From Bacillota bacterium (GTDB lineage: Bacteria; Bacillota; Clostridia; Christensenellales; SZUA-584): DNA of 64,000 bases. Below, one piece after another: positions 183 through 53,095 of this stretch. Numbering within the stretch: position 1 is the stretch's first letter; each line of letters begins with the position of its first letter. The stretch lies in NCBI GenBank assembly GCA_023408075.1, contig JAEYKW010000046.1, positions 1 through 64,000 of the forward strand, in the 5' to 3' direction. Under the pieces are notes generated by a model. It saw only the letters and a list, made by a program, of their open reading frames with translations. It was not told the DNA's origin and did no database searches. The translations under genes were made by a program, and so were the position numbers.

Positions 183-224
183 GACCACAATAAAGGCTGT
201 GATGGAGATCAGTAGTTAAAAACC

Positions 225-447
225 TGCTTTTTAGAGAGCCGTCGGGTGGTGCAAGACGGCAGGCGGTATTTGATGAACTCGCTCCGTAGCCGCTGTACCG
301 AAAGCTTTTCAGTAGGTGCAGACGTCGTGACTCAACGTTACACGAGGACGGGCATCATGTTGTGCCCTGATGAGCTGGCGGCTATTTAACCGCAAGCAGA
401 GTGGTAACGCGAAGTCTTTCGTCTCTGTATGACGAAGGGCTTTTTTT
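225..447 (+). promoter_or_regulatory. T-box riboswitch leader (probably Leu-specific) with terminator/antiterminator
   Basis: AGAGA/GA-motif region near 234, then a T-box-like sequence AGAGTGGTAACGCG (398-411; consensus GGGTGGTACCGCG). Terminator hairpin CTTTCGTC...GACGAAGG plus T-run at 416-447 lies immediately upstream of leuA. A possible CUC specifier sits in GAACTCGC. Confidence 0.5.
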
Positions 448-4851: not shown

Positions 4852-5457
4852 ATGTATAATTCGTGTATGATGTCATTGCTGTTAATCATTCAGTCAGCTG
4901 TTCCGACGGACGAGAAGGAATTGAAGCTGATTCAATATGCGCAGAAGGGTGACCAGCAGGCGCTGGAAACGCTGCTTTTGAAATACGAAAAAAAAGTCTA
5001 CAATGTGGCTTACCGCTTCATGGGCAATGAGGCCGATGCTTACGATATGGCGCAGGAGTCCTTAATCAAGATCTATAAAGGTGTCAGAACCTTTCGTTTG
5101 GAAGCGTCTTTTTCGTCCTGGGTGTACAGAGTGACCGTCAACACATGCCTTGATGAGCTGCGCAAGCGCAAAAAAGCACCGCTATCTCTCGATAACACGC
5201 TCGAAAGCGGCGTGGTGATTGAAGACAGAGCGGGGCTCACGCCCGAAATCCACGCGCTTAATATCGAAAGCAGGGAAGACATACAAAAGGCCATCAGTAC
5301 GCTGTCCGCAGATCACCGCATCACGGTCGTGCTGCGCGATATACAGGGGCTGACCTACGAAGAAATCGCCGAAACGCTCAGCATTTCCATCGGGACTGTG
5401 AAATCCCGCTTAAACCGGGGGCGGCAGCGCCTCAAAGAAATCTTGATCGAAAGATGA
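4852..5457 (+). CDS. ECF-family RNA polymerase sigma factor (sigma-70 regions 2 and 4)
   Basis: ALETLLLKYEKKVYNVAYRFMGNEADAYDMAQESLIKIY (region 2) and LTYEEIAETLSISIGTVKSRLNRGRQRL (region 4). The true start is probably downstream of 4852, because a TTGCAA-16-TATAAT promoter (4833-4860) lies inside the listed ORF. Confidence 0.8.
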   Translation: MYNSCMMSLLLIIQSAVPTDEKELKLIQYAQKGDQQALETLLLKYEKKVYNVAYRFMGNEADAYDMAQESLIKIYKGVRTFRLEASFSSWVYRVTVNTCLDELRKRKKAPLSLDNTLESGVVIEDRAGLTPEIHALNIESREDIQKAISTLSADHRITVVLRDIQGLTYEEIAETLSISIGTVKSRLNRGRQRLKEILIER

Positions 5458-7334: not shown

Positions 7335-7672
7335 GTGCTTAGATTGAAAAAGCCTTCTCCTTTGAGGAGAAGGTGGTGCGCAGCACCGGATGAGGTGGCA
7401 AGCCGAAACTGTTCATACAGCCTCCTCATCAGCCGTCTGCGAGGCGCAGCGCCCAATCGACGAAAAAGCCGGCACAAATCGCTTATGTGAGAGAAAGAAA
7501 CTCTCGTGGACATATCAAATATGCGCAGTCAGCCGTATACGCGTCACAGGAATGATATCAGCATCTAGCGCAATATGTTTCGCCGGTTCTGCGCGAGCTG
7601 TTGGATCAGCAGAAAACTTATCATATCGCATCAAACTGACGGACATACTATCTTCTGAAAGGAAGGCATCAG

Positions 7673-8680: not shown

Positions 8681-9116
8681 GTAAAAAAGCCGAAGATTAT
8701 GCGGCTTATACTGCTGGAAAAGCAACAAAACGTCATTCCGATGGAGCGTAAGCGGAAGAGGAATCCCATGATTAAGAGCATTAGTATTCGGGATGCTCTC
8801 CGCCTGGCAATCGTGTCACTCCGCTCTTCATTAACGCGGTGGAATGCATGATATAGTATGGTTCTCATAAAGTTGAGTTGCAATTGTATCCACCTTCAAA
8901 CTGAGAAGATTAAGTATTTAACTAAGATGCAAGCTGTCACGGCAGTTGGGCGGCGGGAGGAAAAGCACTGCCACTTCCTCTGCGGAGGCGTGGATTGAAG
9001 AGAGGATAAGTTTCCTCCGGGGGGCGCCGGCTCTTGACAGACGCCCTCATAGGTATGACTTGTGAGAGATGATAAAGCTTGTTGATATTATGCGAGCTTA
9101 AGGCTATATGCGCAGA

Positions 9117-14348: not shown

Positions 14349-15338
14349 ATGAAGCGCAGATTATTAATACTCGGCATTGCCGCCATATTTATTTTGGCGC
14401 TGCTGCCAACAGCCGTACTGGCGTACGATTCCGGCGGCGAGACGTACAACGCCCACGATTACAACGCGATGGTAAACTTCTTGAACCAGCCTTCGGCAGT
14501 CAAGGGTCAGACAAACGCTCAGCGGCTTGGCTACGATATATCGCAGCCCGAAACGTGGACCGATGTTGTTTGGAGTGATGATACGGAAAAACGCCTTGTG
14601 CAAATCGGCTCGGAAAGCGGCGCGAGCGCCTGGACCAGTAAAAGACTGGCAGGCTCCATGGACCTCTCAAACTGCACCGCACTTGAAAAAATCAATTGTG
14701 ATTCAAACAGCATGACTGCGCTTGACGTAAGCGGTTGCACGGCGCTTCAAGATCTGAATTGCATGGACAATCAACTGACAGCGCTCGATATAAGCGGATG
14801 TACTGTGCTTGTCAACCTGATATGCAACTTTAACATGTTGACAACGCTCGATATTAGCGCAAATACGGCGCTTGAGGATCTGGCATGCTATGGTAATCAG
14901 CTTGCATTGCTCGATGTGAGCACAAATAAGGAACTTAAAATATTGGTATGCAGTTACAACCGACTGACAGCGCTCGATGTGAGCGCAAACACGGCGCTTC
15001 AAAATCTGTCTTGCAGCCAAAACCAGCTTGCACTGCTCGATGTGAGCACAAACACAGCACTTAAATATCTTGATTGCCGTGAAAACCAGCTGACAACACT
15101 CGATGTGAGTCAATGCACGGCGCTTATAGATATGGATTGTGGTGGAAACCAGCTCACAGCGCTCAATTTAAGCGAGTGCACGGCGCTTCAAAAGCTCAAA
15201 TGTGATGAATCAGTTGCGGTAACGGGATTTACACCGCTCTGGGTGTATTTCGAGTACGGCTTAGGGCTTCTTGTCCTTGGCGCTGTAACGGCATGGATAC
15301 TGATCCGCCGCAGGCGGAAGAAACGCGCTAATCACTAA
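14349..15338 (+). CDS. Cell-surface leucine-rich-repeat protein with signal peptide and C-terminal TM anchor
   Basis: Signal peptide, N-terminal cap domain (YNAHDYNAMVNFLNQ...), about eight 22-residue LRRs (LTALDVSxxTALQxLxCxxNQ) and a C-terminal hydrophobic helix plus RRRRKKR. Confidence 0.75.
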   Translation: MKRRLLILGIAAIFILALLPTAVLAYDSGGETYNAHDYNAMVNFLNQPSAVKGQTNAQRLGYDISQPETWTDVVWSDDTEKRLVQIGSESGASAWTSKRLAGSMDLSNCTALEKINCDSNSMTALDVSGCTALQDLNCMDNQLTALDISGCTVLVNLICNFNMLTTLDISANTALEDLACYGNQLALLDVSTNKELKILVCSYNRLTALDVSANTALQNLSCSQNQLALLDVSTNTALKYLDCRENQLTTLDVSQCTALIDMDCGGNQLTALNLSECTALQKLKCDESVAVTGFTPLWVYFEYGLGLLVLGAVTAWILIRRRRKKRANH

Positions 15339-16468: not shown

Positions 16469-17107
16469 ATGTCTGCGATCTATGTTTATATTCTTGATAC
16501 TTTAGCCGACTGGGAACTTGGGTATGTTATTTCGGAGCTGAATTCCGGCCGGTTTTTCAAAAAAGGCGAGCAACGTGTATCGCTCAAAACGGTTAGTTAT
16601 TCTGGGGAGCCAATCAATACAATGGGCGGGATGACAATAGTGCCCAATTGCTTAATTGATGATATCGTTGTGAGTGAAACAAGTATGCTGCTATTGCCGG
16701 GCGCAGATACATGGAACGACCCAAAGCATAGCGCTATCATCGAAAAAGCAAGCGAATTTCTCTCTCTAGGCGCTACGGTGTGTGCAATCTGTGGGGCTAC
16801 CGCAGCACTTGCCAACTTTGGGCTACTGGATAAGCGTCCGCATACCAGTAATGGACCGGGGTTTCTTGAAATGGTTTCTCCTGCCTATAAAGGGCAGAGC
16901 TTTTATATAGACAAGCCATCTGTAGCAGATAACAACCTTATTACTGCAAGTTCCACCGGAGCTTTGTTATGGGCAAAACAAATTATTGAGCATTTAGGTG
17001 TTTTTCAATCGAACACGCTGGAATTCTGGTATGAGTATTTTAGTACCGGTGAGCCTGAATATTTCTTTGCCCTCATGCAATCTTTGCCGTCCGGCAATGA
17101 AAACTGA
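16469..17107 (+). CDS. DJ-1/PfpI family (class-I glutamine amidotransferase-like) protein
   Basis: Nucleophile elbow CAICGAT, LLLPGADTW, about 210 aa. Divergent from the WYL regulator. Confidence 0.75.
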   Translation: MSAIYVYILDTLADWELGYVISELNSGRFFKKGEQRVSLKTVSYSGEPINTMGGMTIVPNCLIDDIVVSETSMLLLPGADTWNDPKHSAIIEKASEFLSLGATVCAICGATAALANFGLLDKRPHTSNGPGFLEMVSPAYKGQSFYIDKPSVADNNLITASSTGALLWAKQIIEHLGVFQSNTLEFWYEYFSTGEPEYFFALMQSLPSGNEN

Positions 17108-17156
17108 TCGTTGCTCGGTGGGTAGTTCGTTGTGTCCGAATACTGTTCTAACCAAT

Positions 17157-17359
17157 GAGCGGCGGTTTTAAAACCGCCGCTCTGCTTGATAAAAAATCCC
17201 ACCCTGTCATGCTGAGGAGCGTAGCGACGTGAGCATCCCATGGCTAAACGCGTATAACATGGGATTTTTCGATCGCTTACGCTCACTCAAAATGACGTTT
17301 AGTACTTTGTCAGCAGCCTGAACGGCGGTTTTAAAACCGCCGCTCTGCTTATTTTTCAG
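17157..17359. repeat. MITE-like palindromic element, copy 1 (137-bp core flanked by a duplicated 26-bp hairpin)
   Basis: Core 17183-17319 has imperfect terminal inverted repeats (GTCATGCTGAGGAGCGTAGCGACGTG / revcomp GTCATTTTGAGTGAGCGTAAGCGATCG) and is about 90% identical to 53115-53281. Flanked on both sides by (G)AGCGGCGGTTTTAAAACCGCCGCTC. Confidence 0.55.
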
Positions 17360-17403: not shown

Positions 17404-18378
17404 TTAGACGGTCGGGGTGCCGCAATCCGGGCAGAATTTGCTTGCGACCATCTTACGGCATTTGGGACAGAATTGGTCCCCGGTTGCTGCAGCTTGTGCC
17501 GCCGCTGGTTGGCTCGGCGCCGTACCCATTGCGCCCGCCATCTGCTGCGCCATCTGCGCGCCCATCACCATTTGCGCGCCCATCGACGCAAAGCTGTTGT
17601 CGTTGGCGCCGGGTGTCGTGAAACTGTCCGCCATTTGAACGGTTGCATACTTGCCGACGTTGTTCACGAAGGCTTGGCCAGCCACACGCTCCGCCATTTG
17701 CTGTACTTCCGGCGGGTAGTTGATACTGAGGATATTCACGTCGTCCACACCCAAACCGAATTCTTGCAATTCCTTGTCGAGCTCAGCGCAAATGACTTTC
17801 CCCAATTTGCGGCTGTTTTGCTGCAAGCCGATGAGCGCGTTGACGTTGATGTTCTGCTCTCCGCCCAAAATAGCTTCCGCAACCACAGGATTCAACTCGC
17901 CCATGATGCGTTCTGAAATGTCCGAAAGCGAATAGGTATCCTTGACGCCTGCGACTTTATCGATGAACGTCTGATAATCGCGGAACTGCACAATCAGGTT
18001 GCCGTGGCAGCCAATGGGAATGCCCGAGGGAACCTCGGGAGTGGGAATCATGATACGTTGCCGGGTGCCCCATTGCAGCAAGAGCTGCTTGCTGTTGATG
18101 AAGTAGACCTCCGCACGCATTCCGGTGTCGCCGCGCAGGCTAAACCAGCCTTTGAGCGTGGAGAGGAAGGGAACGATATCGGTTGCAACATCGTAGCTGC
18201 CCGCGTTTTCAAAAACGCCTTCGATCACGCCGTTCGCGAAAAAAATCGCTTTTTGTCCGGCTCGGATAACGAGCTTTGCGCCTTTTTTTATCTCCTTGGC
18301 AGGCCACTTGTAAAACAATATATCATCCCGAAACTCTTCCCATTCGATCGTATCCTTGCCTTGTCCAAACCATGCCAT
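17404..18378 (-). CDS. SPFH/Band-7-like domain protein with C-terminal zinc ribbon (B. subtilis YdjI-like)
   Basis: N-terminus MAWFGQGKDTIEWEEFRDDILFYKWPAKEIKKGAKLVIRAGQKAIFF is typical of the SPFH-like 'Band_7_1' family. A Gln/Ala/Met-rich linker is followed by CPKC...CPDC. Confidence 0.55.
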   Translation of the reverse strand: MAWFGQGKDTIEWEEFRDDILFYKWPAKEIKKGAKLVIRAGQKAIFFANGVIEGVFENAGSYDVATDIVPFLSTLKGWFSLRGDTGMRAEVYFINSKQLLLQWGTRQRIMIPTPEVPSGIPIGCHGNLIVQFRDYQTFIDKVAGVKDTYSLSDISERIMGELNPVVAEAILGGEQNINVNALIGLQQNSRKLGKVICAELDKELQEFGLGVDDVNILSINYPPEVQQMAERVAGQAFVNNVGKYATVQMADSFTTPGANDNSFASMGAQMVMGAQMAQQMAGAMGTAPSQPAAAQAAATGDQFCPKCRKMVASKFCPDCGTPTV

Positions 18379-29081: not shown

Positions 29082-29456
29082 ATGATACCCAAAATTTCCG
29101 ACTCTGAGCTGGAAGTCATGCGGTTGCTTTGGCGCGAAGAGCGCCCCTTGTCGTTTGCCGAGATACGCACGGAGCTTGAAAGCAAAACCAAATGGACTAA
29201 ATCCACGATTCAAACACTTGTGGTTCGCTTGCGCGACAAGGGCGCTGTCAGCACACAAACCAACTATGTAACTTTGTACAGTCCCGCCGTCACCGAGCAG
29301 GAATATGTATTGGCAGAGGGTCAATTGTTTCTGGATAAGCTGTTTAAAGGGAACGCGAAAAAGCTTGTCGCGTCATTGTGTGAAAACGGACAGTTAAACG
29401 AAAGCGACATCGACGAATTAAAGCAGTTTTTCAAAATGGAGGACTGTCAAAAATGA
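29082..29456 (+). CDS. blaI: BlaI/MecI/CopY-family transcriptional repressor
   Basis: Winged helix SDSELEVMRLLW...SFAEI...TKSTIQTLVVRLRDKG and a C-terminal dimerisation helix. Confidence 0.85.
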   Translation: MIPKISDSELEVMRLLWREERPLSFAEIRTELESKTKWTKSTIQTLVVRLRDKGAVSTQTNYVTLYSPAVTEQEYVLAEGQLFLDKLFKGNAKKLVASLCENGQLNESDIDELKQFFKMEDCQK

Positions 29457-31333
29457 TCATATCACAATTGAGCGACATTGTTTGCACGATTATGATTATG
29501 TCACTCTCCGGCAGCGCTCTCATACTGCTGTTGTTTGCATTAAAACCGCTCATACGTCATCAATTGCCCAAGTCGGTGCAATATGTCTTGTGGCTCGTTA
29601 CGCTCGCGGCACTGCTCGTTCCGGTATCAAAGCTGATTGCCATACCCGATGCGCCGTCACATATCATAGTTGCACCGATCCAAAACGCCGTAGAACAAAA
29701 CAATATCGCAGGTAAAGAAGCAGCGGATACACTTTCTCAGACGAATACAGTTTCGCAGACAGATAGAACGACAACGAAAAATCCGGGTGTTAAGCCAGCG
29801 ATGCACCCTGTATTCACAGCGGCAACTGTATTGATGATAATCTACATGTTAATCGTATTGGTCGTGCTGTCTTATTACATCGTCAGCTACGTTCGGTTCA
29901 CAAGAAGAGTGCGCCGCCATCGCACCCGGGCGCGCATGGAAGAGCTTTATGAGCATGTCGGGTTATGCGGCGATACGATTGCGCCCCGTCTTTACCGCAG
30001 CGCGCTGACCACAACGCCGATGCTGATCGGGATATTTAAACCCGAGATCATATTGCCCGACCGTGAATATACGGGCGCACAATTTCAGAGTGTATTAAAG
30101 CATGAGCTAACTCATTTGCGCAGACGGGACATCATAGTCAAGTGGCTGTCCGTGTTGGCCCGAGCTGTGCACTGGTTCAATCCGCTCGTATGGCTTGCGT
30201 TGCGCGAAATCGACCGTATCTGTGAATTGTCCTGTGACGAGGCCGTGATACGAACAATGGATCACGCAGGAAAACGGAGTTATGGGGAAACATTGATTTC
30301 CATCGCAGCTGATAACAATGCATCGCGGGCCGTGCTTTCCACAACGATGTGTGAGGAAAAAGAGGTATTGAAAGAGCGGCTGAACCTCATTATGAAATAC
30401 CAAAAGCGGACATGGGTCACGCTCGTTATCTCGACGATTATTATATTCGCAGCTGTTTTCACAGCCTTTGTTATGGGCGCACGGGCGGCTTCTGCTCCTG
30501 GAGATAATATGGCTGGCGCAGTGGCTCCGGCATCCGTGCAGAGTGCTCTTCCATCGGATTCTGCGGCAGCCCAGCCGCATTCTCCCTCTGAAAAAGTTAT
30601 AGAGTTCAAGGATCCGATTGTGGAGAAGGTCATCAGCGCCAAATTGAAAAAGCCAGAAGGCGCGATCACCGAGCAGGACATGCTGAAGATTGAGGATTTT
30701 GAATTCAATGATGTAAGAATGAATATATACAGCGGGAAAATTAAAACGATAGAGGACCTGCGCTGGTGTGTGAATCTTAAGAGTATATTCTTAGCCAGTA
30801 CGGACATAACAGATATTTCCGCGCTATCCGGCATGCGGAATCTCGAATCCGTCTGTATCATGGAAAAGCTTGACGACTTCACTCCGCTGCTTGGCAACAA
30901 GAACCTTACCGAAATCCAACTCACAGGCGCTGCCGACAACTTTTTCAGGGATCTGATGAAAAATTGCAGAATGCTTTCCTCCGTGGGCCTGACTAAGTCA
31001 GACGTCAGCCCTGAAAGCATCCGAATGTTGGCAATGAACTTTAAGTTAACAACTCTTGTTATGAATTTCTGCTATATAAAGGACGTCACTCCTTTCATCG
31101 ACTTCACGGGGCTGGAATACTTGTCGCTTGAAAACAACTATATAAAAGATATCTCGGTGTTTGCGGCGAACCCGGAATTGAGCAAAGCCATCGATCTGAG
31201 CGGCAACCAAATCACCGACTGGAGCCCGCTGGAAGATATGACGTTGCTTAGCCTCAACGTATATGATAATCCGGTAACGAAAAGTCCAGCACTGGATAAA
31301 CTCGAAAAAAAAGGCTGTGAAATTTATAGGTAA
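29453..31333 (+). CDS. BlaR1/MecR1-family M56 metalloprotease signal transducer with C-terminal leucine-rich-repeat sensor domain
   Basis: 4 TM helices, HELTHLRRRD (HExxH) and the M56 core. After a further TM helix there is an internalin-like LRR domain (...LSLENNYIKDISVFAANPELSKAIDLSGNQITDWSPL) instead of a penicillin-binding domain. Overlaps blaI by 4 nt. Confidence 0.8.
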   Translation: MIISQLSDIVCTIMIMSLSGSALILLLFALKPLIRHQLPKSVQYVLWLVTLAALLVPVSKLIAIPDAPSHIIVAPIQNAVEQNNIAGKEAADTLSQTNTVSQTDRTTTKNPGVKPAMHPVFTAATVLMIIYMLIVLVVLSYYIVSYVRFTRRVRRHRTRARMEELYEHVGLCGDTIAPRLYRSALTTTPMLIGIFKPEIILPDREYTGAQFQSVLKHELTHLRRRDIIVKWLSVLARAVHWFNPLVWLALREIDRICELSCDEAVIRTMDHAGKRSYGETLISIAADNNASRAVLSTTMCEEKEVLKERLNLIMKYQKRTWVTLVISTIIIFAAVFTAFVMGARAASAPGDNMAGAVAPASVQSALPSDSAAAQPHSPSEKVIEFKDPIVEKVISAKLKKPEGAITEQDMLKIEDFEFNDVRMNIYSGKIKTIEDLRWCVNLKSIFLASTDITDISALSGMRNLESVCIMEKLDDFTPLLGNKNLTEIQLTGAADNFFRDLMKNCRMLSSVGLTKSDVSPESIRMLAMNFKLTTLVMNFCYIKDVTPFIDFTGLEYLSLENNYIKDISVFAANPELSKAIDLSGNQITDWSPLEDMTLLSLNVYDNPVTKSPALDKLEKKGCEIYR

Positions 31334-31520
31334 GGAACTTTATAGCCCCGCCGTCACCGAGCAGGAATATGTATTGACCGAGGGTCAATTGTTTCTTGAT
31401 AAACTGTTTAAAGGGAACGCGAAAAAGCTTGTCGCGTCGTTGTGCGAAAACGGACAATTAAGCGAAAGTGACATCGACGAATTAAAACAATTTTTCAAAA
31501 TGGAGGACTGTCAAAAATGA
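31317..31520 (+). pseudogene. Truncated blaI copy (C-terminal dimerisation half only) created by tandem duplication
   Basis: The 67-aa ORF is about 90% identical to residues 66-124 of the full BlaI and lacks the DNA-binding domain. Confidence 0.5.
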
Positions 31521-33421
31521 TCATTTCACAATTAAGCGATATCATTTGCACGATTCTCATTATGTCTCTCTCCGGCAGCGCTCTCATACTGTTATTGTTT
31601 GCATTGAAACCGCTCATACGCCATCGTTTGCCCAAATCGGTGCAATATGTCTTGTGGCTTGTCACGCTTGCGGCACTGCTCGTTCCCGTATCAAAGCTGA
31701 TTACCATACCCCAAGCGCCGTCAGATATCATAGTTGCACCGATTCAAAATGCCGTGGAACAAAATAATGTTCTGGTTCAGGAAGAAACAAATATGGTGCC
31801 GCAGACGGACACAAATACAGTGCCGCAGACGGACACAACGACAGCAAAAAGTCCGGCTGTGAAACCGGCGATGAACCCTGTCATAACAGCCACAACCGTA
31901 CTGATGTTGGTCTATATATTAATTGTATTGGTCGTGCTGGCTTATTACATAGCCACCTACGTTCGTTTCACAAGAAGAGTGCGCCGGCACCGCACCCGGG
32001 CGCGTATGGAAGAGCTTTATGAGCATGTCGGGTTATGCGGCGATACGATTGCGCCTCGCCTTTACCGCAGCGCGCTGGCCACAACGCCGATGCTGATTGG
32101 AATTCTTAAACCTGAGATCATATTGCCTGACCGTGAATATACCGACACACAGATGCAGAGTGTATTGAAACATGAGTTAACTCATTTGCGCAGACGGGAC
32201 ATTATTTTTAAATGGCTGTCTATATTCGCCCGCGCTTTGCATTGGTTCAATCCGCTCGTATGGCTTGCGCTGCGCGAAATCGACCGTATCTGTGAATTGT
32301 CCTGTGACGAGGCTGTGATACGGACTCTCGATCAAACGGGAAAACGGATTTACGGGGAAACGTTGATTTCCATCGCATCGGATACGAATGCATCGCGGGC
32401 CGTGCTTTCCACAACGATGTGTGAAGAAAAAGAGGTGTTGAAAGAGCGGCTGAACGTTATTATGAGATACCAAAAGCGCACATGGATCACTCTCGTTGTT
32501 TCGACGGTCATCGTGGTTGCGGCGGTTTGCGCCGTCTGTGTGTTCGGTGCGGGAGCGGCTCCGTCGGCGGCTCCGGGCAATAATAAGGTGGATGCATTAG
32601 CAGCAGTCGCCATACAGAGCCCGTCAGCAACGCCCGTGGCAACGCCGGAATCAGCCTCCTTGCAGAGCGTTTTGCCGTCGGCGGCGCCTGAAGAAGAGGC
32701 GCAGCCAGTATCTTTAGAGAGCCCATCGACGGCACCTGAGGCAGCAATGCAACCGGCACCCGTTCAAAGCTTTTTCGCATCACCTGCGCAAACACCGGAC
32801 CCGGATTATATAAATGAGCTGCGCAAAGATGCCATAGAAGTAAGCACAGAAGAAGAATTTGCTGATGCGCTGAATACTGCCGACGTCGTTGTATTGAAAA
32901 AAGATTTAACGCTAGATGATGAATTTGTGACATTAGAAGATTTAGAAGCGCTGGTTATTGATGAAGGCGTTACACTGACTGTCACGTGTTTGAATCTTCA
33001 TGCGACCTGTGAAATCGTCAACCTTGGAGAAATCATAGTGGCCGATTCCGGTCGATTGATGTTTTTCAGTGAACCGGATTATTCTACGATCGGTAAAATC
33101 AGTGTTATAGGGAAAGACGCCAAAATCTTATACGGTGCAGGCAAAGTCGGTGCTGAAGCAATTGCTTATTATCTGAGCGATGATTCGCTCTTTAATGAGC
33201 TTAGTTTAACCCCGCCTTACAGGGATGGCGAAATTGTTGAGATACTCGTTGACCAAGACATTGAGATAGCCGCCGGTAAAACTCTTTGGATGAATGCTCA
33301 TAGCGTACTGCATGTGGCAGAGGGAGTGACCCTTACCAATAACGGGGCCATACGCTATTATGTCGAACCCATCATCGACGGGAAAATCGATGGAATAGGA
33401 AAAGTCGTCTATGATGATTAA
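31517..33421 (+). CDS. BlaR1-family M56 signal transducer paralog with novel C-terminal extracellular domain ('domain X')
   Basis: The N-terminal 340 aa are about 90% identical to the first BlaR1. After a Pro/Ala/Ser-rich linker there is a 210-aa domain shared with the LysM protein at 33501 (…VIDEGVTLTVT..NLHATCEIVNLGEIIV.DSGR…). Confidence 0.8.
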   Translation: MIISQLSDIICTILIMSLSGSALILLLFALKPLIRHRLPKSVQYVLWLVTLAALLVPVSKLITIPQAPSDIIVAPIQNAVEQNNVLVQEETNMVPQTDTNTVPQTDTTTAKSPAVKPAMNPVITATTVLMLVYILIVLVVLAYYIATYVRFTRRVRRHRTRARMEELYEHVGLCGDTIAPRLYRSALATTPMLIGILKPEIILPDREYTDTQMQSVLKHELTHLRRRDIIFKWLSIFARALHWFNPLVWLALREIDRICELSCDEAVIRTLDQTGKRIYGETLISIASDTNASRAVLSTTMCEEKEVLKERLNVIMRYQKRTWITLVVSTVIVVAAVCAVCVFGAGAAPSAAPGNNKVDALAAVAIQSPSATPVATPESASLQSVLPSAAPEEEAQPVSLESPSTAPEAAMQPAPVQSFFASPAQTPDPDYINELRKDAIEVSTEEEFADALNTADVVVLKKDLTLDDEFVTLEDLEALVIDEGVTLTVTCLNLHATCEIVNLGEIIVADSGRLMFFSEPDYSTIGKISVIGKDAKILYGAGKVGAEAIAYYLSDDSLFNELSLTPPYRDGEIVEILVDQDIEIAAGKTLWMNAHSVLHVAEGVTLTNNGAIRYYVEPIIDGKIDGIGKVVYDD

Positions 33422-33500
33422 GAACCAAAATTAAGATTTATAGCGGATATATAGTAAAACGAATTGTTTAATAACTTAATGCCGATAATAGGAGGATGCC

Positions 33501-34427
33501 ATGAAAAGATATTTCGCTATCACAATTGTCATTATCTTCATCCTGTCCTTGCTGCCGGGTTATGCCAGCGCTGGCACTGCTGAGCCTTCTATAATAACAG
33601 CCCGTGCGACTGCGCCAGATCTTAAACCCGGCCAGATTTCTCAGATGTATGAGGAGTATACCGTCAAGCGCGGAGACAGCCTTTCTTCGATTGGCAGACA
33701 ATTTGGCGTATCATGGCGGGACATCGCGAAACTGAACGATATACATGGCCCGAAGTATACAATTCGACCCGGTCAAATATTAAAAATCCCACAGTCACTA
33801 ACATCATCCCCGTCTTATGTAAAACAGCTGCGCAAAAATGCAGTAAAAGTGAACACAGAAAAAGAATTTGCTAATGCGCTGAAAACAGCCTATGTCATTG
33901 AACTGAAAAAAGATATAACTTTAAGTGAAAATCTTGTTACATTAGACGATATCAATGCGCTGGTTATTGATGAAGGCGTTACGTTGACTGTCACATCTAT
34001 GAATTTTCATGCTACATGTGCAATCGTTAACCTTGGAGAAATCATAGTGAAGGACTCCGGCCGGATGATTTTTCACAGTGAACCGGATTACTCCTGTATC
34101 GGTAAAATCAGTACCAGAGGGAGATTCGCTCAAATTGCCTTCAATTCGGGAAAAATCGGTGCTGATGAAATGACTTATTTCCTGAGCGAAGATTCGCTGT
34201 ACGATTCGCTCAATATTGTCGCAAGTTCCTCCGATGGAAAACCTGTCGAGATATTGGTTGACCATGACATTGTCATCCCTGCCAGTAAAACCCTTTGGAT
34301 AAATTCTGGAAGCGTTTTGCATGTGTCAAAGGGAGTGAAGCTAACCAATAACGGTACCATAAGCTATTTTAACGAACCTATCATTGACGGGAAAATCGTT
34401 GGAATAGGAGAAGTCATTGATAACTAG
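33501..34427 (+). CDS. Secreted LysM-domain protein carrying 'domain X' (shared with BlaR1 paralog 2)
   Basis: Signal peptide and LysM (YTVKRGDSLSSIGRQFGVSWRDIAKLN...ILKIP). The C-terminal 210 aa are about 55-60% identical to the BlaR1b sensor domain. Confidence 0.7.
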   Translation: MKRYFAITIVIIFILSLLPGYASAGTAEPSIITARATAPDLKPGQISQMYEEYTVKRGDSLSSIGRQFGVSWRDIAKLNDIHGPKYTIRPGQILKIPQSLTSSPSYVKQLRKNAVKVNTEKEFANALKTAYVIELKKDITLSENLVTLDDINALVIDEGVTLTVTSMNFHATCAIVNLGEIIVKDSGRMIFHSEPDYSCIGKISTRGRFAQIAFNSGKIGADEMTYFLSEDSLYDSLNIVASSSDGKPVEILVDHDIVIPASKTLWINSGSVLHVSKGVKLTNNGTISYFNEPIIDGKIVGIGEVIDN

Positions 34428-34791
34428 AAACCGTATTTAAGCTTAAGGCTCATCAACTGAATTCAATTATTAACGGATATGCTAAATTTAAAACAGCGGA
34501 ACGCTTCACTTTAGCGGTTATATTTCTGCTCAAGGTTCCCATACTAGTGCTCACATTTATTAACATTGGATGGGATCTTTTACGGTAGCAATTGGGTGTG
34601 GAACGACGTCGTAAAAAACGTCGTTCCGAGCGGGTTCGGTCGGTTTATGCTTTTCAGTTTATATTGACTCCTATCTCAGTGACCCGTCGATTGCGTTGAA
34701 ACCTTAAAGCACGAAGATAATTACGATAGCAATCGTTTAGCAGCTAATGAAACAATTTTTGAAATTCTGAAAAAAACAGCAGGAGGACGCC

Positions 34792-36246
34792 ATGAAAAGA
34801 TTATACACCTTAACAATCGTCATTCTCCTCATACTGACCCTGCTGCCGGGCTATGCCAACGCGGGTGCAGCCGCATTTCCCGAAGCATCCGCGCAAGCGG
34901 CTGCCTTAACACCTCCGGTGCCGATACTGTCACTCGCGCTCGACCAATACTCTGAGCTTTACCGGGAGTACACGGTTAAGCGCGGTGACAGTCTTATCTC
35001 GATAGGCAGACAGTTCAAGGTGCCGTGGAGAGATCTTGCAATACTGAACGGTATAGGGGGACCAAAGTACACGGTTACCAACGGACAAACCCTCAAAATC
35101 CCGCTGCTGCCGAAGCTGCCGGGGACAACCGGCAATTATCTTATTCTTTGCGAAAACGAAGCGCAAAAGCAATGCCTGGCCGAATTCGCAGCATACAAAA
35201 TATTAAACGGATATTCGGTGACGATAAAAAGCGTGGAAGCGGATGTCAAATTGAAAGCCGATGCCGACACCAGCGAAGAGATACGGCAATATCTTAAGAA
35301 GATGGACAAGGTGTTATCGCTGGAATTCGTGTTACTTGTCGGGAGCGCTTACGATGAAGAATCGGCTTGTATTCAGCACACCGGCGGAGCTATTCCGCTG
35401 AGATATATGTACGACAATCCGGCCAATCGTGACTACAGTTGGTACGATGGCAAGAACCATAAAGTATTCAAAACGCCGACAGATATCTATTATGCGTTGG
35501 ATCTAAACTGGGATTTTGACGAGGATGGTTTCGCAGGCGAAAGGAATGAGATGGCCGAAAGCGTTAAGCAAGCAGAGCCCAAGTTGTTGTTCCGGCTTGG
35601 CAGAATCCCATTTTCGGATAGCAAAGATATCAAGAAGGTACTGGATTCAACGATGCAATATGAAATCAGCCAAAAAGCACATTCTGATGCTCTGATCGGC
35701 AGCTATGGGATATGGGCTTACTATAGCGATGCGCTTGCGAATAATTTCTCCAATATGAAGATTAAGGCTGTCTCGCTTTACGGAAATGACGAAAATGGGC
35801 CGTGTCAGTACAAAAGCACCTACCCGTTAAGTATCGATAATTTCTTTAGTGAAATCAATAAGAAGTATGACTTTGTTTATATAATGGGCGATATAAAAAA
35901 ATATTGCGGCAACACGCCTTTAGGGAAACGCGTGCAGGCCGGAATTTACTTCCTCGACGGTACGGCGACAATGCAAGCGGAGCCCGAACCGAAATATTCT
36001 CGATTTAATGCACAGGATTTCCTTGCCGAAGGGTCGGCCTGTACCGTGATTGCCACCACCGAAGAAGTCGGTTTTAACCCGAAAAATCCGGTCCCGCGCA
36101 TAACCAGCAGGTTATTCTCCAATAAAATGCTCAGCATCTCAGGTGAATTCTATGCCGCGGTACTGTCGTCGATCATGGAGGACGATGTGAGGGAAGCCTA
36201 TGTTTACTGCTATCTCGGTGACCCGTCTATCGCCTTAAAACAATAA
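34792..36246 (+). CDS. Secreted LysM-domain protein with C-terminal peptidase-C25 (gingipain)-like domain
   Basis: Signal peptide and LysM paralogous to the 33501 gene. C-terminal region has the C25-type pattern YALDLNWDFDEDGFAGE...PKLLFRLGRIPFS. The catalytic His/Cys are not clearly identifiable. Confidence 0.55.
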   Translation: MKRLYTLTIVILLILTLLPGYANAGAAAFPEASAQAAALTPPVPILSLALDQYSELYREYTVKRGDSLISIGRQFKVPWRDLAILNGIGGPKYTVTNGQTLKIPLLPKLPGTTGNYLILCENEAQKQCLAEFAAYKILNGYSVTIKSVEADVKLKADADTSEEIRQYLKKMDKVLSLEFVLLVGSAYDEESACIQHTGGAIPLRYMYDNPANRDYSWYDGKNHKVFKTPTDIYYALDLNWDFDEDGFAGERNEMAESVKQAEPKLLFRLGRIPFSDSKDIKKVLDSTMQYEISQKAHSDALIGSYGIWAYYSDALANNFSNMKIKAVSLYGNDENGPCQYKSTYPLSIDNFFSEINKKYDFVYIMGDIKKYCGNTPLGKRVQAGIYFLDGTATMQAEPEPKYSRFNAQDFLAEGSACTVIATTEEVGFNPKNPVPRITSRLFSNKMLSISGEFYAAVLSSIMEDDVREAYVYCYLGDPSIALKQ

Positions 36247-37173: not shown

Positions 37174-39849
37174 ATGAAAAAGCTTAGTCTCTTTCTCGTG
37201 TTGTTGTTACTCATTTCTATGTTCCCATTACAGGCATTGGCTGCCGATGAAAACAACGACAGCTATAACGATCACGATGTGGCGCAGATAAGCGCATTTT
37301 TGAATCAAACGTCTTCCGGCTTAACCAACGCGGAAATACTCGGTTATGCCGACCCAAATGATCCGGCGATATGGAGCGATGTCTCTTGGGTTTCAGTGGA
37401 TGGTGAACAACGCGTTCAGAGCATCAACTGGGGCTTTAAGGATACCGCAGGAGTGCTGGACCTTTCGGGATGCACGGCCTTGACCGAACTGTATTGTCTC
37501 TCGATCGGGCTGACCTCTCTGGATGTGAGTGGATGCACCGCTTTAAGCACGCTATCATGCGAATTTAATTCGCTGACCAGCCTCGATGTCAGCACCTGCA
37601 GCTCGCTCAGTCAGCTTTCTTGTTATGTTAATGCTATTGAAACATTAAATGTGAGTGGCTGCAGCAATTTGACATGGCTGAATTGTTCTGAAAATAAACT
37701 CACACAGCTCGATGTGAACAGCTGTGCCAATCTTGGCGATCTTGATTGCAGTCATAACAATTTGTCGTCGTTGGATGTGAGCGGCTGCCCTCTGGGATAC
37801 TTATCATGTACTGAAAACCCGCTGAAACAGATTCACGCTGTTATAGAGGGAGAGGATGTCAAACTGAACGCATCAGCAGGATATCTTAAGTTATCTTATT
37901 TGGCTTACGACATCGAAGGTGAGATGTACGTCGATAGATATTCCGCGTCGGCTGTCCCTGACAGCATGCCGTGCTCCGGGTGGACGGGAATGCAGGACGG
38001 GGTGTTATTCTCGTCAGACGATTCCAATATCGATCTTGAAATCGGCTGTTCATACGACATTACCGCGAATTTTGCGAGCGGAACCGTATACAACGACCAT
38101 GACGTCACAAAGATGCAGGTATTCCTCAATAAAGAGCCTTTAGAGGGACCAAATTACATGCAGCTGGGTTATGACGTTGACGACCCGTCCACCTGGAACG
38201 ATGTGACTTGGGTGGCTTCGCCCGAAGGCCTGCGCATATCGGCGGTTGAATGGAACGAAAGACAAGCCGTCGGCGGTACGCTCGATCTTTCCGGCTGCGC
38301 CTATCTTGAGTCTGTCGATTTTTACGGTAACGAGCTTCATGGGCTTAATTTGAACGGCTGTGCCGCGCTTAAGAATGTTTCCTGCAACGATAATTATCTT
38401 GATACGCTGAGTCTAAGCGGATGCGACGAGTTAACAAGCTTAAAGCTCAACAACAACAACGGGCTTCTCATTGCGCTTGAGCTGCAGGGGTATACAAAGC
38501 TTGAGCACCTTGAGTGCGTACAAAGTCTTCTCGATACACTTGATGTTGGCGGCTGCACGGCACTCACATATCTTGATTGCAGCAACACTTATGAGTACAA
38601 TCGCAATTTTATCAACACTCTTGACCTGAGCGACAGCACGGGGCTGACAACGCTGAAATGTGCAGGCAATCCTCTGGCTCGTATAAGCGCGATTATGAAC
38701 GATACTGTGATAGATCTTACCGCCGGAGGGTGGGGATATGTCGCATTATCTGAGGGCGGAGAGACAGCTTATACGGTGCAAGTGCCCGATACTCAACCGT
38801 TTTCAAGCTGGATAGGCACACAGGACGGCTCCCCGTTCTTTTCAGCCGAATCGACAATAAATTTAACGCCCGGCTCCGAATATGTCCTGATGGCGAATTT
38901 CGGTTACGGCGTTTTTTACGACGGCAACGGAGCGACGGGCGGCACAGTACCCGATGGCGGCAGACACAACGCGGGGGATTCCATTGGGGTGCGCAGCAAC
39001 TCGGGCAGCCTTGAGCGAGCGGGTTTTGAATTTGCAGGCTGGAACACGGCGGCTGACGGCAGCGGCACATCATACAGCGAGGACTCATCGATGATGATGC
39101 CCGCAGAGAACATCACGCTGTACGCGGTTTGGGAGCCCATCGCCTATACCATCACCTATGACCTCGACGGAGGTGAGGCACAGAATCCCGCGACTTACAA
39201 TGCTCTGACCCCGGCATTCACGCTGAATAATCCTACGAAACTGGGATATGTGTTTGCGGGCTGGACGGGAACGGACCTTGCGAATGCGGCGATGAGCGTC
39301 AGCTTCCCGGCGGGGTCCATAGGCGACAGGGCTTACACAGCAAACTGGGCGCAGAACACAGTATACACCGTCACATTCGATGCGAAGAACGGGAGCGCGG
39401 TGGACAGCATTGAGGTGAATGCGGGAGGGACAATTGAAACCGCCCCTGTCACGAGCCGGTTCGGTTATAACTTTACCGGCTGGTATACGAAGAAGGGAGT
39501 GCTCATAACGTTCCCATATCATGTAACGGGCAGCGTGACGCTTTATGCGGGGTGGGAGAAGCAGCCAAAGACAGCATACCTTTCGGATGTTGAACTCTCG
39601 TCTGGCACTCTCGATTCAAACTTTTCGAATTCGAAATACCTCTATTTAATAAGGCTGCCCGAGAGTGAGACGAGCTTTACGCTGACCCCGGTTAAAGAGT
39701 ATGATGGCGCTTCGATGTCGATAAACGGGGAATCCACATCGAGTTACACGGTTAACCTTGAAAACCATAGGAATGCGCTGATATGCGTGATCGTGCAAAA
39801 CGGCAAAAGCATAAGGCTGTATACTTTCATCGTGCACAGAGGAAGATGA
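37174..39849 (+). CDS. Large secreted LRR protein with Listeria-Bacteroides repeats and C-terminal cadherin-like beta-sandwich domain
   Basis: Signal peptide and two copies of the cap+LRR module seen in the 14349 gene. Also 3-4 Listeria-Bacteroides (Flg_new) repeats (GY.FAGW..). C-terminal LS.GTLDSNFSNSKYLY...FTLTPV is cadherin-like. Confidence 0.75.
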   Translation: MKKLSLFLVLLLLISMFPLQALAADENNDSYNDHDVAQISAFLNQTSSGLTNAEILGYADPNDPAIWSDVSWVSVDGEQRVQSINWGFKDTAGVLDLSGCTALTELYCLSIGLTSLDVSGCTALSTLSCEFNSLTSLDVSTCSSLSQLSCYVNAIETLNVSGCSNLTWLNCSENKLTQLDVNSCANLGDLDCSHNNLSSLDVSGCPLGYLSCTENPLKQIHAVIEGEDVKLNASAGYLKLSYLAYDIEGEMYVDRYSASAVPDSMPCSGWTGMQDGVLFSSDDSNIDLEIGCSYDITANFASGTVYNDHDVTKMQVFLNKEPLEGPNYMQLGYDVDDPSTWNDVTWVASPEGLRISAVEWNERQAVGGTLDLSGCAYLESVDFYGNELHGLNLNGCAALKNVSCNDNYLDTLSLSGCDELTSLKLNNNNGLLIALELQGYTKLEHLECVQSLLDTLDVGGCTALTYLDCSNTYEYNRNFINTLDLSDSTGLTTLKCAGNPLARISAIMNDTVIDLTAGGWGYVALSEGGETAYTVQVPDTQPFSSWIGTQDGSPFFSAESTINLTPGSEYVLMANFGYGVFYDGNGATGGTVPDGGRHNAGDSIGVRSNSGSLERAGFEFAGWNTAADGSGTSYSEDSSMMMPAENITLYAVWEPIAYTITYDLDGGEAQNPATYNALTPAFTLNNPTKLGYVFAGWTGTDLANAAMSVSFPAGSIGDRAYTANWAQNTVYTVTFDAKNGSAVDSIEVNAGGTIETAPVTSRFGYNFTGWYTKKGVLITFPYHVTGSVTLYAGWEKQPKTAYLSDVELSSGTLDSNFSNSKYLYLIRLPESETSFTLTPVKEYDGASMSINGESTSSYTVNLENHRNALICVIVQNGKSIRLYTFIVHRGR

Positions 39850-46304: not shown

Positions 46305-48554
46305 ATGTTTGTGATAGAGAATAAAGACATATGGGCTTATGAAAAGGCGTACCTTGAAAAAGTGATCAGAGAGATAAAAAAGCAGCTGGATATCGGTATC
46401 AACGCTGTCGACAATTATAAAAGCGATGCCATACAACTGCAAAAAAGTATGTGGGAAGACATACGGTGTGCCCCTTCCGGCTTGTTCGATCTGGAGGATG
46501 CCGCACAAATCAACCAGATCCAAATGGACTTAAAAAACAAAGCCAGCTTATACAGATTTTCTTTTGAAAAAGTCAACCACCTGAAAATAATGCTCAAAAG
46601 CCCGTATTTCGGTCGAATTGACTTTCTGGAGCACGGAGAAGCCAAAGCCGAGTCAATCTACGTAGGGGTATACAGCTTAAGTACGAACGATACAATGGAT
46701 CTCCTCGTTTACGATTGGAGAGCACCGATCAGCAGCATGTTTTATGATTTTGAGATCGGTCCTTCAAGTTATTCATGCCCGGCAGGCTTAATTGAAGGCG
46801 ACATGCTGCTCAAAAGGCAGTACAAGATCGAAAATTCGGATATCGTTTATATGTTTGACAGCAGCCTGAATATCAACGACGCCATGCTTCAGGAACTGCT
46901 CGGCAAAAGCACAGACAACAGAATGAAAACGATTGTGGCAAGCATACAAAAGGAGCAGAATTCCGTCATCAGAAACAGTCAGGATAAAATACTCATCGTT
47001 GAGGGCCCAGCCGGGAGCGGCAAAACGTCAATCGCGCTCCACAGAGCCGCATACGTTTTATACAGGTTCCGGGACACCGTCAAATCGGAAAATATACTGA
47101 TTTTTTCTCCGAACCATGTGTTTGAGGACTATATTTCTCATGTGCTGCCCGAGCTGGGGGAAGAGAATATACGCAGAAGCACATTTGCGGATTTTTTCTC
47201 AAATGCTTTTTTCACGGACCTGCAAATAGAAACAATGAATCAGCAGATGGAATATATACTGACTTTGGATCGAGCCTATGATGTCAGGCTTGAATGTATC
47301 AAATTCAAATCATCGCTGCTGTATCTGGATATCTTAAAAAAGTATATCCGGTATCTTGAAAGCGGAGCGGTGCTGAAATTTAAAGACGTTGTTTATGATA
47401 ACGCCATTCTGATCTCTGCAGACGAAATATACCAGCTTTATAAAAGTCAGTCGAGCCGCTTGCCCTATGCCAACCGGCTGGGGAAGATACGTGAGCGTCT
47501 TTTCAGGCTTTTGGAAGAGTATGAAGAAAGAAGAGTCAGTGATGCTTTAAAGAAGGATGCCAATGCGGATAAAATGGGCAGCCGGGACATAAAGGAAGCG
47601 TATGAGCTTGCTAAAGAGGATATTATTCGGATGACGGCTTTTGAAATCTGCCCGTTGTATTTGAATTTGTTTGAGAATTTCGGAGCTTTGCTGCAAGCGT
47701 TTGATATAAGCAGCCGTGAAGACTATAACATGTTGACCGGATATACAATTCGTGCGTTTAGCGAAGGGATCATCAACTATGAGGACCTGGCACCCTTGAT
47801 ATATCTGAAAACGGCGCTTGGAGGGGAGGATACTGCGGCCTCAGTGAAGCATGTCATCATCGATGAGGCACAGGACTATACGCCCGTGCAATATGAAATT
47901 TTCAAGACGGTGTTTAAAAACAGCAATATGACGATTCTCGGCGACGTCAACCAAACCGTTAACGGGTATATGAATATCGGGAGTTTTGATACCATCTCAG
48001 ACGCTTACGCGGGTTCGAAAAAGATAGCGCTGACAAAGAGTTATCGTTCGAGCAAAGAGCTCGCGGACTACTGTAAAGAGCTGCTGGCTTCCCCGGGGCA
48101 ATCGGAGCAGTTGAACAGGCACGGGGCAAAGCCAAGGGTTGTTAAGGCTGATATCAGCGGCGTTTATAAGAGAATGGCGGATGATATCCTTGATTTAAAG
48201 AACAAAGGATATCAGCTCATTGCGGTGATCTGCAAAACGGCCTCCAAATGCAAGACTGTCTATCAAGACCTGAAGCCGCTTTTGGATATCTGTTTGATTT
48301 CCAATCAGAACGAAGTCTATCACGGCGATATCGTCGTGATTCCGTCGTATCTTGCCAAAGGACTTGAATTTGACGCCGTATTGGTCGAGTCGGCTGATGA
48401 TACGGATTATCATCAGCCCGAGGACAGAAGGCTGCTGTATACGGTATGCACGAGAGCTTTGCATGAGCTGTACTTATATTACGTTGATACGCTGTCCCGT
48501 TTTGTATCGGCCATCGATGAGCCGCTGTATATTCATGATGATGCGACACGGTAA
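46305..48554 (+). CDS. helD: HelD-type (UvrD/Rep superfamily 1) DNA helicase, RNAP-associated
   Basis: Walker A IVEGPAGSGKTSIALHRAAYVLYRF. The overall length and the N-terminal coiled domain are typical of Firmicute HelD. Confidence 0.8.
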   Translation: MFVIENKDIWAYEKAYLEKVIREIKKQLDIGINAVDNYKSDAIQLQKSMWEDIRCAPSGLFDLEDAAQINQIQMDLKNKASLYRFSFEKVNHLKIMLKSPYFGRIDFLEHGEAKAESIYVGVYSLSTNDTMDLLVYDWRAPISSMFYDFEIGPSSYSCPAGLIEGDMLLKRQYKIENSDIVYMFDSSLNINDAMLQELLGKSTDNRMKTIVASIQKEQNSVIRNSQDKILIVEGPAGSGKTSIALHRAAYVLYRFRDTVKSENILIFSPNHVFEDYISHVLPELGEENIRRSTFADFFSNAFFTDLQIETMNQQMEYILTLDRAYDVRLECIKFKSSLLYLDILKKYIRYLESGAVLKFKDVVYDNAILISADEIYQLYKSQSSRLPYANRLGKIRERLFRLLEEYEERRVSDALKKDANADKMGSRDIKEAYELAKEDIIRMTAFEICPLYLNLFENFGALLQAFDISSREDYNMLTGYTIRAFSEGIINYEDLAPLIYLKTALGGEDTAASVKHVIIDEAQDYTPVQYEIFKTVFKNSNMTILGDVNQTVNGYMNIGSFDTISDAYAGSKKIALTKSYRSSKELADYCKELLASPGQSEQLNRHGAKPRVVKADISGVYKRMADDILDLKNKGYQLIAVICKTASKCKTVYQDLKPLLDICLISNQNEVYHGDIVVIPSYLAKGLEFDAVLVESADDTDYHQPEDRRLLYTVCTRALHELYLYYVDTLSRFVSAIDEPLYIHDDATR

Positions 48555-52827: not shown

Positions 52828-52949
52828 CGGGTTGCGATAAACATTTGGCTTGTTGATCTTGTATCGATTTTAGCCTATAACGAGTGCGGGGGAGAGCATT
52901 GGCCGTCCGCGATGTACATCTGCAATCCTCCGTCGCGCTGCGCGCGCCA

Positions 52950-52980
52950 CCTCCTTTCAAAAAGGAGGCTTTTTTCTATG
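52950..52980 (+). terminator. Rho-independent terminator (CCTCCTTtcaaAAAGGAGG + T-run)
   Basis: Perfect 7-bp stem followed by CTTTTTTCT; lies downstream of the hydrogenase gene. Confidence 0.5.
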
Positions 52981-53095
52981 CATTTCAAACTGCCGCGTTT
53001 TTAAGGCTCCTCGTAGGAGTCGGCAGTGAAGCTGACTGAGGATTGATCTGGAAATTACTTTAACAATGACAATCCTCTGTCGCGCTGCGTACGCA

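Follow-up and report, generated by a model that had tools for sequence, protein, structure and literature searches.

A miniature transposon-like element associated with duplicated terminator hairpins in Bacillota genomes

We analyzed a 64,000-nt stretch of DNA from a Bacillota bacterium (contig JAEYKW010000046.1 of assembly GCA_023408075.1, positions 1 to 64,000; hereafter, the window) and find that it carries a dispersed non-coding element, belonging to uncultured Clostridia of gut type, whose well-preserved copies nearly all stand between two copies of the same stem-loop. [quoted passage not shown] As part of the same reading, the targets are probably short stem-loops rich in G+C, for the most part intergenic intrinsic terminators. 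The element inserts in both orientations, irrespective of the neighboring genes. An initial annotation of the window had suggested that the element targets hairpins and duplicates the target, and this is borne out both by 15 of the 16 copies with two preserved ends and by orthologous empty sites with a single hairpin.

Further copies were collected by scanning one genome per prokaryotic species for an exact 21-mer taken from the left arm of the element. The scan matched 21 loci, 10 of which hold the whole element and belong to five species of metagenome-assembled genome (MAG) named “Bacillota bacterium OH_*”; five more copies lie in the orthologous loci that we fetched. At one of the loci (L013), the upstream gene encodes an O-acetylhomoserine lyase that has relatives at 87-96% identity on long contigs. 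The orthologous loci are syntenic, with the lyase gene followed by a convergent spore-germination permease gene, and across them the terminator between the two genes is found in five states:

State 1, empty (L026 and L027): single hairpin AACAGCGGGACAACCGCTGTT followed by T7, in a 43-nt spacer
State 2, empty (L031 and L032): single hairpin followed by a T-tract
State 3, filled in forward orientation (L013, L024 and L025): AGCAGCGGAAAACCGCTGCT duplicated
State 4, filled in reverse orientation (L028): AACAACGGGGAACCGTTGTT duplicated
State 5, filled by a diverged subfamily (L033-L035): duplication of 22 nt rather than 20

These five states are the result of at least three independent insertions into one terminator, with the local version of the hairpin duplicated each time. 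Therefore, the element is mobile DNA, the hairpin is its target, and the flanking repeat is a target duplication.

Two other features were seen around this hotspot terminator. About 300 nt of extra non-coding sequence lie between the right hairpin copy and the permease gene in two of the forward-filled loci (L013:4463-4770 and L024:11475-11737) and are absent from the empty L026 and the reverse-filled L028. Additionally, large serine recombinase genes (Resolvase/Recombinase/Zn_ribbon_recom) are located about 8 kb from the terminator at L028:579-2111 and L029:1897-3414; they are probably part of an unrelated integrated element.

The same arrangement of element and hairpin holds across the family. 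We aligned the 60 nt outside each end of the 16 copies in which both ends are preserved, and 15 of them turn out to be flanked by direct repeats, 18-26 nt long except in copy 1 of the window, where the repeat has 32 nt. Each repeat is a stem-loop (fold energy -7 to -21 kcal/mol) whose sequence differs by locus, and at least 12 different hairpin sequences are used as targets. The termini of the element are the same every time: CAGCTTGATG, or a variant of it, comes directly after the left repeat, and CAGCAGCCTG directly before the right one. In clean copies the repeat stops 22-24 nt before TGTCAT and resumes 23-24 nt after ATGAC. The duplication is dyad-symmetric, and its length tracks the size of the hairpin: a hairpin with an 8-bp stem is duplicated over 20 nt when its loop has 4 nt (L013, L028) and over 25 nt when its loop has 7 nt (L005), and one with a 10-bp stem and a 5-nt loop also gives 25 nt (L007). 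The flanking A- and T-tracts remain outside the duplication, and because of this only the hairpin copy that retains the T-tract scores as a terminator. In total, more than 15 loci, spread over at least eight genomes or assemblies, have the same unit of about 150 nt placed between unrelated hairpins, in both orientations. The search for further copies of the core and the inspection of their flanks, as the initial annotation had called for, thus yield a multi-copy family with duplicated, locus-specific hairpins abutting the ends; the core is not confined to the two sites first noticed, and the duplication pattern recurs in other copies.

Within the window, two copies are well preserved, and one of them has an empty-like counterpart nearby:

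17182-17320, plus strand: copy 1 of the element, 139 nt, the short form without either stem-extension segment, with termini CTGCTTGATAAAAAATCCCACCC and TTTAGTACTTTGTCAGCAGCCTG
17156-17187: left target copy of copy 1, a direct repeat of 32 nt, with the palindrome proper AGCGGCGGTTTTAAAACCGCCGCT at 17158-17181
17319-17350: right target copy of copy 1, with the palindrome at 17321-17344, beginning AACGGCGG and followed by CTGCTTATTTTT
53116-53282, plus strand: copy 2 of the element, 167 nt, the long form with both 14-nt stem-extension segments
53095-53115: left hairpin copy of copy 2, ACCTCCTTTTAAAAAGGAGGC, 21 nt, now separated from the T-tract
53283-53302: right hairpin copy of copy 2, ACCTCTTTCAAAAAGGAGGC, 20 nt, retaining a T6 tract and a terminator-like score
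52923-53010, plus strand: paralogous empty-like site with the flank sequences of copy 2 and a single hairpin (52949-52969), without the element

Copy 1 lies in a 296-nt spacer between a DJ-1/PfpI gene (16469-17107, plus strand) and a convergent SPFH/Band_7 gene (17404-18378, minus strand). The initial annotation had described a 137-bp core here between two identical palindromes. Its location was correct and two palindromes do flank it; the length is 139 nt, the two 24-mer palindromes differ at one position (23 of 24 agree), and the direct repeat proper spans 32 nt (17156-17187 versus 17319-17350; 97% identical). Copy 2 has a plus-strand gene on each side, one of them Fe-hydrogenase-like and the other for a DAO/Rieske oxidoreductase, and its position confirms the claim that the core recurs near 53115-53281 between copies of a different palindrome. 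Its flanks are 21-nt and 20-nt versions of the hairpin CCTCCTTT.AAAAAGGAGG. The empty-like site about 150 nt upstream of copy 2 completes an empty/filled pair within the window itself. The two copies align from end to end with about 95% identity outside two indels, which are the 14-nt segments found only in copy 2; these segments are complementary to each other bar one mismatch and lengthen the central stem. A chance origin of the recurrence is excluded, because two 28-nt patterns from the core each occur exactly twice in the window versus 0.00 times expected from shuffles.

A search of the window with an nhmmer profile built from copies 1 and 2 finds four more degraded copies, for a total of six copies or remnants:

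8709-8850, minus strand: degraded copy whose right end abuts a hairpin AAGCCG...CGGCTT with a T-tract; left end eroded
57670-57801, minus strand: degraded copy that keeps the central hairpin and the right stem-extension segment
3964-4079, minus strand: strongly degraded copy, left part only, adjoining a hairpin TTTCGGA...TCCGGAA
59845-59956 (profile match 59898-59956): two degraded right-end fragments, tail-to-tail around one hairpin CGTTCCCAATAAGGAGACG at about 59878-59896

The tail-to-tail pair suggests two hits of opposite orientation at one target. All six window copies are intergenic, five of the six lie past the 3' end of a flanking gene, and three are between convergent genes. A further match at 46844-46870 was set aside as not belonging to the family, being inside a coding region. 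Among the loci from other genomes, the match in L001 (Zhongshania), which has no TGTCAT context, was set aside as chance, and a sequence at L018:4698 was set aside that resembles the left end and has no element behind it.

The element has a constant organization. From the outside in, its parts are the two ends (left, 23 nt; right, 23-24 nt), which form the terminal inverted repeat, then two inverted tagged units, and a central hairpin, so that the insertion unit reads CAGCTTGATGAAAAACCCC...(TGTC-tagged hairpin)...(central hairpin)...(inverted TGTC-tagged hairpin)...TTTGTCAGCAGCCTG. The terminal inverted repeat (CTGCTTGATAAA / TTTGTCAGCAG) matches at about 11 of 12 positions, and both 3' ends read ...CTG. 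The terminal inverted repeats of about 27 bp in the initial annotation were drawn too loosely: beyond the terminal match, the whole element is an imperfect palindrome. The folding suggested there gives a z-score of -6.0 for both window copies. The inner units have the form (C/T)GTC-A-N4-[GAG...GCGA loop]-N4'-T-CCCA and are present twice, in inverted orientation. In copy 1 these parts are:

17205-17240, plus strand: left unit, resembling a repetitive extragenic palindrome (REP), with tag TGTC, stem ATGCT/AGCAT, 18-nt loop GAGGAGCGTAGCGACGTG and tail CCCA
17237-17263, plus strand: central hairpin CCCATG...CATGGG, then five T
17260-17297, minus strand: right REP-like unit, inverted, with tag CGTC, stem ATTTT/AAAAT, loop GAGTGAGCGTAAGCGATCGA and tail CCCA

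Size variants at 139-167 nt are crossed only by spurious overlapping ORFs. In one locus (L012:4080-4374), a head-to-tail dimer of the element is enclosed by a single pair of duplicated hairpins, with the two units joined directly and a few terminal bases missing. The junction, CAGCAAGCTGA joined to AAAACCCC, looks like two ends set against each other and could stem from an intermediate in the form of a circle or dimer.

How would such a duplication arise? Since the duplicated segment is the whole stem-loop, varies in length, is dyad-symmetric and does not depend on orientation, the cuts should lie at the feet of the hairpin on opposite strands. [quoted passage not shown] The two feet would be 20-25 bp apart in B-DNA and would be adjacent at the four-way junction of an extruded cruciform, and gap repair would then copy the hairpin on both sides. 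The route would correspond to “pathway b” of the IS1272 model of Wan et al. 2017, which is hypothetical there. In that model, joining of the 3'-OH to the 5' feet duplicates the stem-loop (pathway b) and joining to the 3' feet loses it, as IS1272 does (Wan et al. 2017, PMC5678879); the stem-loop-duplicating route is explicitly predicted (PMC5678879, Fig. 13). The mobiliser would be a DDE transposase of the IS1182-family hairpin-targeting kind that is encoded elsewhere in the genome. By analogy, such an enzyme appears the most likely mobiliser because of the IS1272 model and the hairpin targeting of TnSha1/IS1272. After insertion, one hairpin copy would keep the T-tract and the other the A-tract, such that termination of both flanking genes would be preserved and insertion sites would be safe havens. 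The 20-bp repeats could also allow precise loss of the element by recombination.

Several points weigh against this proposal. Neither a transposase nor a longer element that shares the termini turned up among 22 large ORFs of the Bacillota loci and 10 ORFs of the window, and there is none in the Pfam calls of twelve loci of 7-21 kb (in total, the window of about 64 kb and about 390 kb of loci were searched). The Pfam analysis of these 32 ORFs from the window and the Bacillota loci returns housekeeping genes only. The assignment to a DDE/IS1182 enzyme is made by analogy only, and IS1272 itself deletes the hairpin and leaves no duplication. Internal units that resemble REP hairpins are usually tied to HUH enzymes (the REP-associated tyrosine transposases, RAYT), which are not known to leave a target duplication, and the extrusion of cruciforms with 8-bp stems is energetically demanding in vivo. 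Two of the copies also fit imperfectly. The flanking repeat of L016 is weak and A+T-rich only. In copy 1, the repeat overruns by 6 nt (CTGCTT, 17182-17187) into the left terminus of the element, which a simple model does not predict; in other copies the left terminus at this position is CAGCTT. The overrun may reflect micro-homology when the element inserted, a conversion event between the two repeats at a later time, or a coincidence.

We compared the element with known systems that recognize hairpins. TnSha1 and IS1272 use terminator hairpins as targets whatever their sequence, insert in either orientation, and hit the same site repeatedly (Furi et al. 2016, PMC4923244). The element shares with these members of the IS1182 family a hairpin target that is usually an intrinsic terminator just downstream of a gene (PMC4923244, PMC5678879), recognition of a structure with no sequence consensus, insertion in both orientations, and repeated independent hits in one hairpin. 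It differs from them in that the hairpin is deleted or replaced without duplication there and is duplicated intact here, and in that it is a non-coding element of 140-170 bp with no IS1182-type transposase in the searched loci. Its behavior is related to the hairpin targeting of the IS1182 family, with an outcome opposite to that of IS1272. Other palindrome-targeting members of this family are attributed to Siguier et al. 2015, as cited in PMC4923244 and PMC5678879. The element also differs from group IIC introns in having no ribozyme domains or reverse-transcriptase ORF and a length of only 140-170 nt, and Rfam gives no group II intron match in the window or the loci. Group IIC introns insert directly downstream of terminator stem-loops, which are recognized as structures; unlike the element, they are not known to duplicate the hairpin or to insert in more than one orientation. 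ISfinder reportedly lists direct repeats of 0-60 bp for the IS1182 family.

Four hallmarks of a MITE are found here: small size without coding capacity, terminal inverted repeats, a target duplication, and dispersed copies with presence/absence polymorphism. An autonomous insertion sequence that shares the termini and encodes the transposase was found neither in the window and the loci searched nor in plasmid, phage and viral collections. Like the bacterial MITEs Correia, ERIC, RUP, BOX, Nezha and Chunjie, the element is small, non-coding and palindromic with terminal inverted repeats, and it is intergenic and multi-copy with size variants, nested or tandem insertions, and presence/absence polymorphism. 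However, the duplications of known MITEs are short, of fixed length (2-10 bp) and set by the transposase, whereas here they are 18-26 bp, variable, and always take in the entire stem-loop. Nothing similar appears in a 2024 review of prokaryotic MITEs (PMC10969869), we found no hairpin-duplicating MITE in the literature searched, and a literature search with sequence strings of the element and peptides translated from its arms gave one unrelated match only. Structure-guided target choice with a hairpin left on each side is hardly documented in bacteria.

The tagged inner units have a wider distribution than the composite element. Apart from L001 and the ten Bacillota loci, the loci of the 21-mer scan come from Chloroflexota, Dehalococcoidia, Alistipes (Bacteroidota), an alphaproteobacterial MAG and a Clostridiales MAG, and carry an identical left unit in other contexts. 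Tagged units with the conserved GAG...GCGA loop are present in L004, L006, L010, L011, L014, L015, L017, L019, L020 and L021, and up to 38 nt are identical to the left arm of the window across phyla. A search of these loci for the architecture of the unit finds many more units with at least 10 different stems that are always complementary (TGCT/AGCA, TTCT/AGAA, TCCT/AGGA, TTGT/ACAA, TCGC/GCGA, CCCT/AGGG, CTCT/AGAG, TTTC/GAAA, TTCC/GGAA and TTTT/AAAA). In the 19-copy alignment of the element, the 5-bp stems of the units covary as well (0.141 versus 0.072 in shuffles, a value reached by 0 of 500 shuffles, with 14 double-change cells). In Dehalococcoidia, the inverted doublet of units is found alone (L017:2131-2206) or within a different inverted repeat (L014, L017), with no duplicated hairpins. 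Therefore, the duplication goes with the Bacillota composite and its outer ends and not with the REP-like units.

These units resemble the CGTC/TGTC-tagged REP superfamily, which has an unpaired tag, a stem that starts with A-T and T-A, and a short C-rich tail, and for which no dedicated transposase was found (Di Nocera et al. 2013, PMC3733652). The (C/T)GTC tag, the A-T then T-A stem start and the C-rich tail are all present (window 17205, 17297 on the minus strand, and many loci), the general form across these units being YGTC-A-N4...N4'-T-C(C/T)N. Inverted doublets and a spread over several phyla are common to the element's units, the CGTC/TGTC REPs and REPINs (inverted REP doublets; Bertels and Rainey 2011). 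The units differ from CGTC-1 to CGTC-4 in having a 5-bp stem and a conserved loop of 11-20 nt, versus 8-9 bp and 4-5 nt there. Additionally, the doublet of the element has extra ends of 23 nt outside it, and a target duplication of 20-25 bp encloses the whole unit, whereas REPINs are not known to have such a duplication. With these extra ends and the duplication, and with no RAYT among the Pfam-checked ORFs of the window and the loci, the element does not fit the definition of a REPIN despite its doublet.

Two explanations give the tagged units a central role. Tentatively, as a possibility to which we give a minor chance, the stem-loop-duplicating cruciform insertion, so far only hypothesised, could be carried out by a transposase still to be found and possibly not of the IS1182 type, with the REP-like hairpins, seen here in at least four phyla, as the recognition module of a widespread mobilisation system. 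If true, this would explain the spread of CGTC-type REPs, for which no transposase is known. The other explanation, that a REPIN-like element is moved as a folded single strand by a RAYT or an IS200/IS605-type HUH transposase that recognizes the inverted TGTC-tagged hairpins, seems unlikely to us. It would account for the inverted doublet in the core, the covarying and variously complementary stems, the fit of tag, AT-start stem and C-rich tail to the CGTC/TGTC superfamily (PMC3733652), and the stand-alone doublet in the Dehalococcoidia MAG. However, the tagged hairpins lie 23 nt inside the insertion unit and are not terminal, the stand-alone doublets of other phyla have no duplicated hairpins, and Di Nocera et al. 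found no dedicated transposase for the CGTC REPs themselves (PMC3733652). Every clean copy is flanked by a 20-25 bp target duplication. HUH single-strand transposition is not known to make any.

We also considered whether the element is a structured non-coding RNA, either a small RNA or a module of 3' untranslated regions, whose gene spreads into terminators by recombination. A version of this idea was the alternative offered by the initial annotation, and it is not favored by our results; we regard it as very improbable. Both window copies do fold far better than shuffled sequences (z about -6), the central hairpin with its T-run could serve as a terminator, and on the plus strand G-U pairs outnumber A-C mismatches, although this asymmetry is weak. 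However, the Rfam 15 covariance models, run on the window, the loci and the element, find no match on the element, neither at the gathering threshold nor at E<=10. Between the arms, the long helix is 89% paired and shows no covariation (0.051 versus 0.051 in shuffles), which rules out the long inter-arm hairpin as a selected structure. The stem-extension segments are seen in all four combinations (both, left only, right only, neither); thus their pairing is not maintained, and the 14-nt pair is ruled out as a compensatory insertion. Finally, the element lies in arbitrary orientation relative to neighboring genes and T-tracts, at one orthologous site even both ways round, and presence/absence polymorphism together with a target duplication is a signature of DNA transposition.

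The chances are slimmer still for a Cas1-like enzyme (of the casposase or CRISPR-adaptation type) or another non-DDE integrase that attacks both borders of the palindrome. In Cas1-Cas2 spacer integration, a partly palindromic repeat is attacked in a staggered manner at its two borders and thereby comes to stand on both sides of the insert, and the outcome seen here is formally equal to this, with a dyad-symmetric duplication that tracks the length of the palindrome. The differences are that any terminator-like hairpin is used here, that the insert is a defined element with fixed ends, and that the Pfam calls show no Cas1 or other cas genes in the window or loci, where no CRISPR array was seen either. 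Moreover, the CAG...CTG termini resemble transposon ends, and casposon duplications are fixed at 14-15 bp. Lastly, the idea that nothing is mobile and that local tandem duplications of terminators enclose a conserved spacer is already refuted by the clean orthologous empty sites and by the recurrence of the unit in both orientations between unrelated hairpins at the many loci described above, even though the region of copy 2 does hold a tandemly repeated module.

The transposition into hairpins that we propose is of interest for several reasons. Shape-directed target choice is rare among transposons and poorly understood, and in IS1272, the only bacterial case that has been studied, the target is destroyed. 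The present family offers numerous before-and-after pairs from nature, with the target hairpin both retained and copied, such that the two joining positions are fixed at the feet of the stem-loop and the cruciform-junction model is directly testable. The mode of insertion would explain how the element reaches a high density without harm, past stop codons and with a working terminator regenerated for both neighbors. An enzyme with such specificity is a possible tool for inserting DNA at terminators, and the TGTC-tagged hairpins found across phyla bear on the question of what mobilises CGTC-type REPs. In practical terms, the element accounts for broken short-read assemblies, duplicated terminators, and long antisense overlaps between convergent genes. 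For instance, Logan contigs from the source run of the window (SRR13400336, a short-read assembly) end within the element, as expected because dispersed repeats break short-read assemblies.

The organism of the window itself has no close relative in the protein collection, and the best named homologs of its proteins are from Oscillospiraceae, Evtepia and Ruminococcaceae MAGs at 65-73% identity. The nearest homolog of the neighboring SPFH gene is 74-75% identical, too distant for an empty-site comparison, and exact-protein look-ups for the neighbors of copy 1 returned only short Logan contigs that end in the element. The predicted empty allele of copy 1 had 0 matches in a metagenome scan, and a pattern for the central hairpin had 0 matches in the JGI metagenome collection, from which the lineage itself is absent. 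Copy 2 had no blastn match in plasmid and phage collections, and patterns of the element had 0 matches in two scans of viral contigs.

A few minor features were noted near copies of the element. A module of about 90 nt, into whose hairpin copy 2 is inserted, is present twice upstream of the DAO/Rieske gene (window 52923-53010 and 53070-53115 plus 53283-53343), and a related piece is found in a MAG locus (L003:5312-5359). It consists of a stem GACTGAGGATTG...CAATCCTCYGTC, a hairpin in which the anti-Shine-Dalgarno-like CCTCCTTT pairs with AAAGGAGG followed by T6, and an 8-codon mini-ORF (52978-53004, MHFKLPRF; 53311-53337, MYSMLLRF), and has the appearance of a leader or regulatory element. Another palindromic repeat family, unrelated to the element (GCCTTCTCC...GGAGAAGG, GGTGCGMAGCACC, GGATGAGGTG...), has a copy at window 7348-7401 that is 92.6% identical to one at L005:7422-7474, which is about 100 nt from a copy of the element. 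In L008, a T-box (5107-5322) adjoins a truncated copy. Other Rfam matches are a T-box leader upstream of a leuA-like gene (window 190-429), a raiA RNA (L018:4473-4680) and a malK-I RNA (L015:4975-5074). Elsewhere in the window, arrays of a 63-nt repeat with leucine-rich-repeat-like periodicity lie in two large ORFs (14721-15172 and 37487-38580), and there are pairs of paralogous genes at 29277-32110 (about 2 kb) and 32791-34865 (about 1 kb).

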